Source of the DNA: Candidatus Aenigmatarchaeota archaeon
GTDB taxonomy: Archaea > Aenigmatarchaeota > Aenigmatarchaeia > QMZP01
Direction of reading: 5' to 3'
NCBI GenBank assembly: GCA_016198605.1
Contig: JACQIG010000080.1
Location: 1 to 39,197, forward strand
Length of the DNA: 39,197 nt
Positions within the stretch are counted from its first letter, which is position 1; every line of letters starts with the position of its first letter. This document shows positions 1 through 39,197 of this stretch, piece by piece. A model generated the notes under the pieces. That model did not search any database. It was not told the DNA's origin and was given only the letters and a program-made list of their open reading frames with translations. The translations under genes and the position numbers were made by a program.

Positions 1-2600
1 GTGAGGGCCCCCGACAATGTTAGTCCCCGACGTATTAGTGATGTTCCATGACGTATTAGTGATGTTCCATGACGTATTAGTGATGTTCCATGTGATGTTC
101 CATGTGTTGTTCCCAAAAGTGTCATTGGCATTGTTTGTGTTGTTGAAGTGGTTGTCAAATATCAGGTTGTTGCTTGATGGGGGGAGGCTATTGGCTATGG
201 TGAGCCCCACAGTATTCTGGGTGATGGTATTGCGTTGGACGATATTCTGCACGGATGTGAGCCTTAGAGATATCCCGGCGGAGTTGCCGGTGACCGTGTT
301 GCCAAAGATGATATTGCCGCCCGCGCTCTCAAGACTTATGGCATCAAAGGACCCTGATATACTGTTGCCCCTTACCGAATTGTAGTCCCCGCCAAGCGTC
401 AGGCCTTGGCCGTTGTTTGTAAACATGGAATTTTCTATCCTGTTGCCGCCACGAGTGGTGAACACCCCAAAACTGTTGCCAACAAGCGTGTCATTGGTGA
501 TCGTGTTGTTATAGCCGTCAGCGTTTATCCCCCTATCAAAGCCCTCTATCGCGCAGTTCTTTATTGTGGTGAAGTTGTAAGGCCCGGCATCAATGCCTGT
601 GCTGGAGGGGGTGCTATTACCAATGATGCTGAAGCCGCCGCAGTCCAGGGTCACGCCATTCGCGCCTATTATTATGCCACTGGAAGAGCAGTTAAGGCCC
701 TCTTCCAGAGTAGTATTTCCGGTTATGGTATCGCCGCAGGTAAGCACATCTATGAGAGGCGCGAAATCGCCGCCAATTGTTATGTTGCCCGAGGCATTAT
801 ACGGCAGTTTGGTGTCCCCAATGCCGTCGCCATCCAGGTCTGTCCCGTTATAGTCGCGCCAGAAGTTGCCAGCCAGGAATGGCCCGCCCACTATGTTGGT
901 GCCAGATGTCTTTGCGATGTTCCATGTATTGAGGCCGCTATCCTTCGCATTAAGCTGGTTGCCGAAGATGTTATTGTATATTGTATTGCCGCTTGCGTCC
1001 TCAAGCAGTATCCCAACGGGGCTGTTTTCCACAGAATTATCCCTGATCATGTTGGATGATGAGTTCAGTATCAGCAGGCCGGCTTCGCTGCTGCTGATAT
1101 AATTGGCCAGGACAGAGTTGTTGGAGCTCAGATCAATGATGACGCCGAATATGTTCATAGTCACATTATTTGACTGTATTAGGCTGTAGGTGGTGTTGTG
1201 CAGCTCAATATTTGCCTTGTTGCCTGTTATGTTTATCAAATAGGAGTTCTCTACAAAACCGGTATTGAATATGCTTCCTGACACGGTTATGTTTGACGAG
1301 TTCTCTATCATTAGGCCGTGGACGAAGCTGTCCGCTGAGCTTACGCCTGATATGCTTCCTGATATTGAATTGCTGAAGAAGATGCCTGTATCTGCGCCTG
1401 TTATCGTCCCCCCGCTTATACTGTTGCCTGATGTTGAAGTGATGAGATATCCGACAGCGACGTTGCTGACCGTGTTGTTTATGAATGTGCTCCTGTTTGT
1501 CGTGGCATTAAACCCGGCTGCCTGGCCCTCATGCACGATGTTGCCCTGGAACAGGTTGTCTTCCGATTCTATCTGCAGGTTGACAATATCCGGCCCACTT
1601 GCTGGATTGCTTATGTCATTGTAGAGGACGGAGTTGGAGTCCGCATTCACAAGCGAGAGGCCGTTGTTCATTGTGTTCCCGGAAAGCATGCTGTTGAATG
1701 TCAGCGTAAGTAGCACGCTGCCATTATCGTTGTTGATGATTCCATTGCCTGAAATTACATTGCCGTAGTTTGAATTCTTTACATCCACTCCTATGCCCAG
1801 GTTGTCGCTTATCCTGTTGCCATATATGGAGCTCGTATAGAGGCCGTTTGCCTTTATTCCGCCGAGGTTATGATGAAGATAGTTATCGGCTATTTCGTCA
1901 AAGTATGAAGTATCAATGTTTATGGCCTCCAAATAATTCAGCAGTTCACAGCCCCTTATCCTGGCACCATTCCTGAAAGCAACACCCAATCCTGTAGCCG
2001 CCTGCGTGCCCACAAGGACGGTTCCGTCACACCTGACAGTAACATTATTGCCTGTTATCTGCATCCCGTCAGGAATCTCATAAGTGCCTGGGCAGAACAG
2101 CGTGCTTGAGCCGATGCTCATGCCATTGACAGGCGTGGTGCATACGTGGCACGCAAAGGTGCACCCTGTCGTGCCTTCGTCGTCCCAGCCTGTCGCCTGG
2201 TTGCAAATGTTGCCCCCTCCCTGGTAGCTGCCAGACATAATTATGTCCTGCGCGCCATTGTCGCAGGCCTCATTGTCCGCCACTTTGCCACCTGTTCCGC
2301 TTATGTCCAGCCCGTTTGCGACATTGTCCTTGACTATGTTGTTAACAAGCATGCTGCTGTTGCCCTGCACGCTGATGCCATTGAGGTGGTACTCAAGGAT
2401 GCAGTTCTGCACCGTGACATTGTATGCCATTGAATCCAGGGTTATGCCACTTACTGTCCCATCACCGGTAAGCGTTGACCCGAGGCAGTCAAGTGTTATG
2501 TTGCTCTTTGTAACATTCACGGAAGCAGCGCCGTCAGAGGTTATGCACAGCACGTCTCCTGGCTCAGTGAAAAGCATCTCCCGCTCGATGTCGCCGTCTC
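1..2600 (-). other. Two further parallel beta-helix (PbH1/NosD-like) modules of gene C.
   Basis: Translation shows repeated ~22-aa turns (..NSISGGTITGADTGIFFSNSISGSISG.., ..NTITNDTLVGNSFGVFTTRGGNRIENS..). A NosD-like cap motif, GTNIVGGPFLAGNFWRDYNGTDLDGDGIGDTKLPY, lies near 760-930, and a second cap begins at the window edge. Confidence 0.75.

Positions 2601-39197: not shown

Follow-up and report, generated by a model that had tools for sequence, protein, structure and literature searches.

Peptidoglycan hydrolases that archaea direct against bacteria are already known. Around 5% of archaeal genomes carry modular enzymes of this kind, notably those of Nanoarchaeota, Thermoplasmatota and Halobacteriota, and some of the enzymes kill bacteria (Strock et al., PLoS Biol 2025; PMC12352652). 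What appears to be a further example, one that, going by its sequence, fits that class functionally, is encoded by contig JACQIG010000080.1, the subject of this analysis. The window analyzed is the entire contig, 39,197 bp, and so includes no flanking genes. Besides the candidate hydrolase (g2), it encodes a giant adhesin-type protein (g1), a giant protein of beta-helices and a protease (g3), and a small regulator. On balance, we think it probable that these genes come from an uncultivated, most likely archaeal, organism, furnished with an exported wall hydrolase, a giant adhesin, a giant protease and a TrmB-like regulator. On this reading, g2 would be exported by means of a Sec signal peptide, and is predicted to cut the bond between N-acetylmuramic acid (MurNAc) and L-Ala in bacterial peptidoglycan. 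Should the producer prove to be an archaeon that lacks murein, g2 would have to act on material from elsewhere, whether live bacteria or the debris of their walls. g1 would be an adhesin scaffold, probably N-glycosylated, and g3 a beta-helix protein with an S8 protease; plausibly, binding and proteolysis would occur at the same surface. The regulator gene, which diverges from g2 across a single palindromic TATA/BRE (B recognition element) core, probably controls g2, itself or both. Gene layout, domain identities, catalytic residues, promoter motifs and the absence of a conserved arrangement are shown by the analysis; we infer the archaeal host, the export and murein substrate of g2, the regulation, and any cooperation of the three proteins.

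Several described systems resemble parts of this locus. Like the archaeal hydrolases of Strock et al. (e.g. Woldo and Danwoldo of Halogranum salarium; PMC12352652), g2 would bring a secreted murein-cleaving domain to a non-murein organism, and it shares with them a mosaic of seemingly horizontally acquired domains and a patchy occurrence; like them, too, it is found on a small contig. It differs in that the cleaving domain is M23 in those enzymes and Amidase_2 in g2; in size, g2 being several times larger at 1,515 amino acids; in its Kelch and thrombospondin-type-3 (TSP3) modules, its domain without a Pfam model and its PVYREL end; and in that its activity is predicted. g2 has no Pfam-recognized wall-binding domain, and would therefore escape the filter for modular enzymes used in that survey. 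If the host is archaeal, g2 would extend the newly recognized archaeal repertoire against bacterial walls by an Amidase_2 enzyme of large size and unusual architecture, and would show that surveys demanding a Pfam wall-binding domain overlook such proteins. The catalytic domain itself resembles the zinc amidases of the AmpD/T7 lysozyme/PGRP family (PF01510), in that g2 matches the family model and keeps the His-His-Asp ligands and the catalytic Glu. In g2, however, this domain is embedded in a much longer secreted protein, the Lys that precedes the Asp ligand of AmpD is replaced by His (HTDPG), and identity to AmpD is low.

The giant proteins have parallels of their own. SPEARE proteins (Hamm et al., PNAS 2019; PMC6642349) are archaeal surface proteins of 3,000–8,500 amino acids that carry serine protease and laminin-G adhesion domains, and that are proposed to attach to another cell. 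What defines them, however, is a type III restriction-enzyme portion in the cytoplasm together with a membrane anchor at the C-terminus, and neither was found here: no Pfam, NCBIfam or PDB match to a type III restriction-enzyme-like domain occurs in g1 or g2, or in as much of g3 as the contig includes, the C-terminus of g3 lying beyond its edge. Moreover, the S8 and LamG domains occur here in separate proteins (g3 and g1, respectively), and the hosts of SPEARE-bearing cells are archaea, not bacteria. The giant Omnitrophota proteins, or archaeovorins (West-Roberts et al., bioRxiv 10.1101/2023.11.21.568195), are likewise very large, multidomain and extracellular, contain peptidase, TSP3 and wall-degrading modules, and have been read as tools of predation. 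They act in the reverse direction, however, from bacterial producers onto archaea, they exceed 30,000 amino acids, and they include glycosyltransferases, SecA and dockerins.

Six-frame analysis of the contig finds three long frames on the minus strand (g1, g2 and g3) and one gene on the plus strand, the layout originally predicted. Three probably extracellular proteins are encoded, each, it appears, independently promoted; g1 and g3 are incomplete. The regulator gene lies between g1 and g2, convergent with the former and divergent from the latter. A TTG at 15659 was rejected as the start of g2 because the signal peptide would be buried, and long antisense open reading frames within g1 were not counted as genes. 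The GC content is 54%, and no tRNA occurs in the contig. Domains were assigned from Pfam with curated cut-offs, alongside NCBIfam models and PDB sequence searches; coordinates are collected in Table 1.

We regard g2 as a candidate secreted, modular peptidoglycan hydrolase, whose plan resembles that of modular wall hydrolases of bacteria: after the signal peptide come the SH3b-like pair, an Ig/fn3 spacer, the domain without a Pfam model, Amidase_2, the TSP3 repeats and the Kelch propeller. By inspection, the first residues (MKKTAAILGGSAVLLLMFVTLAYA-TH) read as a signal peptide, with charge in the n-region followed by a hydrophobic core and then an AxA site. The amidase domain scores 90.2 bits on PF01510 (cut-off 26), and spans positions 3–130 of the 131 in the profile. 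In AmpD, the zinc ligands are H34, H154 and D164, and the catalytic Glu is E116. g2 retains the corresponding His (IIIHTTE), His (GHDQV), Asp (HTDPG) and Glu (IEHEG). A partial alignment to AmpD (PDB 1j3g) pairs IEHEG with IELEG and HTDPG with KTDPG; the first His was placed by eye alone. Other parts of g2 are less clear-cut. The TSP3 region matches the NCBIfam model CglD (E = 5.8e-27, 93.9 bits) far under its curated cut-off of 400. The SH3b-like pair gives E = 0.04 and 14.6 bits for Pfam SH3_3, against a cut-off of 27, and E = 0.84 for the SH3_3 region of PDB 4krt. Homolog searches with full-length g2 are dominated by fn3 repeats, and only one match has a common amidase architecture (P0068, described below). 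N-glycosylation sequons (NxS/T) are not enriched in g2 (z = 0.3), unlike g1 and g3, which may reflect a foreign, bacterial ancestry of its modules.

The nearest relatives of the amidase domain in reference genomes belong to Verrucomicrobiota and Chitinophagaceae, at 32–36% identity. A scan of genome contigs with the adjoining unmodeled domain and amidase region together returned only bacterial amidases, at 29–36% identity, and one additional match of 75% that spans just 20 residues; the GTDB representatives did not include the genome of the contig itself. These affinities, like those of the unmodeled domain, are consistent with horizontal acquisition.

The unmodeled domain (residues 701–890 of g2), for which Pfam gives no match, is by no means rare. 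An exhaustive HMMER search found it in 790 representative clusters at E <= 1e-3, 93 of them at E <= 1e-30. Among 69 full-length relatives, it is most often joined to Peptidase_M23 (10 cases), Amidase_3 (7) and Peptidase_C39_2 (6); SLH (2), VWA, FHA and PA14 are further partners. Metagenome loci that encode the domain at 46–72% identity look bacterial, and carry FHA, Ser/Thr kinase, PP2C and two-component genes. The Glu of the motif TLQKE is near-invariant across the relatives. Judged by co-occurrence only, the domain is wall-associated; widespread as it is, and found alongside hydrolases of the M23 and Amidase_3 types, it could represent a new peptidoglycan-binding or peptidoglycan-cleaving module. 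Profile searches of PDB, with alignments of 7 and of 35 sequences, repeatedly matched the catalytic region of the Tse3 muramidase, at a non-significant E of ∼1.4, and we retain a lysozyme-like nature as a lead.

The contig is likely to have come from an archaeon, since promoter geometry, the relatives of the S8 and fn3 domains, the fold of the regulator and the contig of its homolog, and sequon enrichment converge on that origin. Of the named relatives of the g3 S8 region, 26 of 27 are DPANN archaea (Woese-, Pace-, Nano-, Alti- and Micrarchaeota), at 30–41% identity, and 9 of the 12 named top relatives of the g2 fn3 repeats are archaeal (Thermoplasmatota or Asgard). NxS/T sequons occur at ∼2 times the frequency expected from composition both in g1 (z = 12) and in g3 (z = 7), a signal somewhat inflated by beta-helix repeats; such enrichment is expected of N-glycosylated archaeal surface proteins. 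One part of the original prediction, an archaeon without murein that encodes a secreted murein amidase, its gene lying between those of a giant adhesin-type protein and a giant protease-bearing one, is supported to this extent: the archaeon is probable and the enzyme credible.

Promoter geometry is clearest between the regulator gene and g2. A palindromic octamer, TTTATAAA, at 15668–15675 is preceded by a BRE-like AAAG, and overlaps an 18-bp near-palindrome at 15655–15672. Its center precedes the regulator start of the database gene call, the ATG at 15697, by ∼26 nt, which is archaeal leaderless geometry. In the opposite direction, ∼90 nt separate the same center from the g2 ATG, and g2 has a Shine–Dalgarno-like run, GGGGGGT, at its start. 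In the whole contig, on both strands, the motif WTTATAWA is found at just the two intergenic promoters, this one and that of g3. Scans for sigma-70-like promoters and intrinsic terminators gave no meaningful excess at gene boundaries. Each gene appears, from these signals, to have its own promoter. A palindromic promoter common to the regulator and amidase genes, and promoters of archaeal appearance (TATA boxes with apparently leaderless starts), had both been proposed, and both are borne out.

The regulator is best described as an orphan TrmB-like winged-helix protein, on the strength of its structural model. An AlphaFold2 (AF2) model shows an N-terminal winged helix, of helix–helix–helix–beta-hairpin topology, with a predicted local distance difference test score (pLDDT) of 75–88, and a C-terminal domain at ∼60. 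The top Foldseek/PDB match is archaeal TrmBL2 (5bpi; E = 3e-5, TM-score 0.28), followed by IclR, Fur, LmrR and RosR. Like members of the TrmB family (e.g. TrmBL2), the regulator, as modeled, has an N-terminal winged helix, a long helix and an alpha/beta C-terminal domain; unlike them, it matches no TrmB model in Pfam or NCBIfam, nor any other model in these databases, and its structural model is of moderate confidence. The winged helix–turn–helix regulator proposed originally agrees with this topology and top fold match, and has no Pfam match. Homologs number two or three in 5.8 billion proteins, and the sole full-length one (P0002) is 27% identical. The contig that encodes it also encodes a GGGP synthase, above the curated cut-off, RPA (replication factor A) and an archaeal KaiC.

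The other two proteins are surface proteins in appearance. g1 is, by its domain content, a giant surface or adhesin-type protein: Pfam recognizes FG-GAP_3, two copies of Laminin_G_3, DUF7743, several copies of CARDB, Big_13, and an array of He_PIG, Big_9 and Cadherin_5 domains. The LamG pair matches PDB 4qvs, an S-layer domain protein, with E = 2.5e-7. No catalytic domain was detected in g1 by Pfam, and PDB sequence matches were limited to S-layer, CRTAC1 and cell-surface domains. g3 is, on the same kind of evidence, a giant beta-helix/protease surface protein. A hydrophobic, signal-like segment follows its GTG/ATG start, and its S8 triad is intact (D1547, H1602 and S1823, in DTG, HGT and GTSMA motifs, respectively). 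The best PDB match of the S8 domain is Tk-SP of Thermococcus (3afg; E = 2e-21).

g1 and g2 end alike. Their C-termini, GGGGTEPPVYRDL and GGSNREKPVYREL, respectively, have a linker rich in Gly ahead of a hexapeptide, PVYR[D/E]L, in the form GG..E.PVYR[D/E]L up to the stop codon. The four codons for PVYR form CCTGTATACAGG, a perfect 12-nt palindrome that occurs in the contig only at these two tags, and the 3' ends of the two genes (16510–16560 and 11032–11082) are 71% identical over 51 nt. The codons after the palindrome differ (GAT TTA versus GAG CTT), yet the residues remain conservative (D/E, then L), and selection therefore acts, it seems, on the tag peptide. For the same reason we rejected the idea that the tag is a DNA-level palindrome alone. 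Neither tag has the C-terminal transmembrane helix and basic tail of the archaeosortase/PGF-CTERM type, and neither matches an NCBIfam CTERM model. None of 392 other retrieved proteins ends in PVYR[D/E]L. The common C-terminal tag noticed originally is real, then, and without explanation; it is the sole positive link between g1 and g2. Since the proteins that share it are both predicted to be exported yet differ greatly, it could be a new sorting or docking signal.

How far these genes form a unit can be judged from their relatives. The sole architecture-level relative of g2 is P0068 (L002 1687–6603, assembly GCA_964404345.1), which shares with it the signal peptide, the SH3b-like pair, the fn3 array, the unmodeled domain and the amidase; the two proteins are 39% identical as a whole, and 64% identical across the unmodeled domain. 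In P0068, an acidic stretch of low complexity and a membrane anchor at the C-terminus stand in place of TSP3, Kelch and PVYREL. Upstream of its gene are a TTATAAAT box and, 8 nt ahead of the ATG, a GGGGGGTG run. Its neighbors are unrelated small genes, none of them giant, and its divergent gene is unrelated to the regulator; a conserved regulator–amidase pair was accordingly rejected. The neighbors of P0002 are housekeeping genes.

A number of findings weigh against the reading that we favor. The nearest relatives of the g2 amidase and of the unmodeled domain are bacterial, and the contig bears no lineage marker genes, which makes the taxonomy indirect. The SH3b assignment is below the Pfam threshold, the PDB matches of the unmodeled domain are not significant, and an AF2 model of that domain, from a two-sequence alignment, has a pLDDT of 38 and is unusable. 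The secretion of g1 is a presumption, its N-terminus and any signal peptide being beyond the contig edge. Finally, the four-gene arrangement is absent around both P0068 and P0002, and there is no sign that the proteins act together.

The last of these points bears on the alternative that survives best, though we consider it unlikely: that these are ordinary surface and nutrient genes, g1 and g3 being generic cell-envelope adhesins and an extracellular protease that serve life in biofilms and the breakdown of protein, and g2 a scavenger of peptidoglycan debris for carbon and nitrogen, and that their adjacency is meaningless. The gene order is not conserved, sets of modules that combine S8 with PKD, NosD, FG-GAP and LamG are widespread in archaeal proteins, and clustering of surface-protein genes is commonplace; scavenging, moreover, is explicitly left open by Strock et al. 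(PMC12352652). Set against this, the tag ties g1 to g2 beyond adjacency, and an enzyme of 1,515 residues with targeting-type modules and a dedicated divergent regulator seems too elaborate for scavenging. Scavenging of wall debris as such is equally compatible with the data as episymbiosis or predation, which are speculation; sequence evidence cannot tell killing from scavenging, and g2 offers a concrete enzyme for testing on bacterial cell walls.

The original prediction went further in the opposite direction, and proposed a conserved functional island, a notion that did not survive comparison with P0068 and P0002 and that sits poorly with genes that appear to have promoters of their own. In its strongest form this would be an island for contact-dependent attack or episymbiosis, in which an archaeon, possibly DPANN-like, uses g1 to dock on a bacterial host and g2 and g3 to breach the wall, the winged-helix regulator provides co-regulation and the tag provides co-sorting. 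We judge this to be quite unlikely. Adhesin, amidase and protease genes are indeed clustered on one strand, g1 and g2 have the tag in common, the nearest named relatives of the S8 domain are from DPANN archaea, most of which are symbionts, Nanoarchaeota are rich in peptidoglycan hydrolases, and the SPEARE proteins (of Nanohaloarchaeota) unite protease and LamG in giant proteins. But the arrangement is conserved in no detectable relative, the genes seem to be promoted separately, and a convergent gene parts g1 from g2. The S8 identity to DPANN sequences is just 30–41%, and neither the GC content of 54% nor the fn3 affinities to Thermoplasmatota and Asgard are DPANN-specific. Nor did Pfam and PDB searches of g1 find a pore-forming, toxin or SPEARE-like restriction-endonuclease module.

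Quite unlikely as well, and to be entertained only as a bolder extension, is the proposal that the producer is an uncultivated archaeon, perhaps DPANN-related, attached to, or preying on, bacteria by means of a giant lectin/propeller adhesin, a targeted murein amidase that perhaps has a second, undescribed wall-cleaving domain, a giant protease, and an undescribed, helix-less sorting or anchoring signal, PVYR[D/E]L. Least probable by our estimate, and very improbable, is that the contig is bacterial and g2 an autolysin or bacteriocin-type hydrolase that acts on its producer's own kind of wall: the nearest amidase relatives (Verrucomicrobiota and Chitinophagaceae, as above), the copies of the unmodeled domain, 56–72% identical, on contigs with FHA, Ser/Thr-kinase or two-component genes, and the Shine–Dalgarno-like run at the g2 start would all suit such an origin, but the promoter geometry is archaeal with no sigma-70 signal, the named S8 and fn3 relatives are overwhelmingly archaeal although bacteria dominate databases, the regulator has a TrmB-like fold and a homolog on an archaeal contig, and N-glycosylation sequons are enriched.

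The features of the probable archaeal contig are listed in Table 1. Most of the modules first proposed for it recur there with Pfam matches, namely FG-GAP, LamG, CARDB, He_PIG, PKD, Kelch, NosD, S8, Amidase_2 and cadherin; TSP3, I9 and SH3b are weak, and the lipase-like fold was not accepted.

Table 1. Genes, promoter elements, domains and tags of the 39,197-bp contig
Feature	Positions	Strand	Basis and remarks
g1	16512–39197	minus	At least 7,561 aa; frame open to contig end
g1 first FG-GAP/VCBS propeller block	37518–38357	minus	Pfam FG-GAP_3 E = 4.7e-32, 4 stretches
g1 Laminin_G_3 (concanavalin-like lectin) pair	35598–36815	minus	Pfam E = 4.4e-54, 2 stretches
g1 second FG-GAP/VCBS block	∼28698–29390	minus	
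g1 C-terminal He_PIG/Big_9/cadherin-like Ig array	16563–19034	minus	He_PIG E = 8.9e-42, Big_9 E = 3.7e-35
g1 C-terminal tag PVYRDL	16515–16532	minus	PVYR codons = palindrome CCTGTATACAGG
Regulator gene	15691 or 15697 to 16491	plus	266 aa, or 264 aa from second ATG at 15697
Shared divergent promoter core (regulator/g2)	15655–15675		18-bp near-palindrome and TATA octamer
g2	11034–15581	minus	Complete, 1,515 aa, start MKKTAAIL
g2 Sec-type signal peptide (predicted)	15510–15581	minus	MKKTAAILGGSAVLLLMFVTLAYA, read by eye from sequence
g2 two SH3b-like modules	15027–15503	minus	Pfam SH3_3 sub-threshold; kept in P0068
g2 Ig/fn3 array	13482–15026	minus	Pfam fn3 E = 3e-22, and Ig_Rha78A_N
g2 domain without Pfam model, ∼190 aa (residues 701–890)	12912–13481	minus	No Pfam match
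g2 Amidase_2 (N-acetylmuramoyl-L-alanine amidase)	12444–12836	minus	Pfam E = 1.8e-25
g2 thrombospondin-type-3-like calcium-binding repeats	11997–12392	minus	NCBIfam CglD, and DxDxDG motifs in sequence
g2 Kelch beta-propeller	11100–11909	minus	Pfam Kelch families E = 6e-33
g2 C-terminal tag PVYREL	11037–11054	minus	PVYR codons = palindrome CCTGTATACAGG
g3 TATA-like box TATATAAA	10978–10985	minus	Center ∼26–28 nt upstream of in-frame GTG at 10953
g3	1–10953	minus	At least 3,650 aa; C-terminus cut by contig edge
g3 TSP3 repeats	10618–10755	minus	Pfam TSP_3 E = 1e-4, under cut-off
g3 N-terminal NosD/right-handed beta-helix	9763–10284	minus	Pfam NosD E = 1.7e-30
g3 I9-like propeptide	6505–6663	minus	Inhibitor_I9 E = 0.0015, weak
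g3 S8 subtilase	5461–6417	minus	PF00082 Peptidase_S8 E = 4e-45
g3 alpha/beta-hydrolase-like segment (residues ∼1937–2004)	5017–5220	minus	Weak, downstream of S8
g3 CARDB, PKD and TSP3 modules	2437–3654	minus	Pfam, NCBIfam, PDB
g3 C-terminal NosD/beta-helix block	1–1470	minus	Pfam NosD E = 2.8e-59; WNITNTS tandem repeats at contig edge

Some smaller observations on g1 and g3 complete the picture. The C-terminal array of g1 contains a direct repeat family of 281 nt, in four copies, at 17237–18381. Some 800 residues of g1 (1521–2320; positions 32238–34637), and other stretches of the protein, have zero Pfam or PDB sequence matches. The TSP3 region of g3 matches the NCBIfam model MtsC (E = 1e-14, 54.2 bits), far under its curated cut-off of 350, and also matches thrombospondins in PDB. 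The lipase-like segment downstream of the protease gives E = 3.4e-4 for DUF915 (20.5 bits against a cut-off of 22) and E = 0.009 for Lipase_2 (15.9 bits against 20.3). No GxSxG motif occurs in residues 1871–2250 of g3, and the elbow reads VGSGMGG where lipases have GHSMGG. With sub-threshold profiles and no GxSxG, the segment was rejected as a lipase; the hydrolase-like module may be non-catalytic, its nucleophile serine seemingly replaced. The sole Rfam match in the contig, to the L19-Flavobacteria leader (2511–2543, minus strand; 31.7 bits, gathering score 31.5, E = 0.024), falls within the coding sequence of g3, and is almost certainly due to chance. A 170-nt direct repeat (758–927 versus 9731–9900, 75% identity) joins the C- and N-terminal NosD blocks of g3, which are paralogous, and indicates, at the level of sequence, a duplication within g3 whose copies flank the protease. 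Three tandem 21-nt repeats (24–92), hard against the contig edge, encode WNITNTS units with two sequons each, and these repeats may be the cause of the assembly break there.

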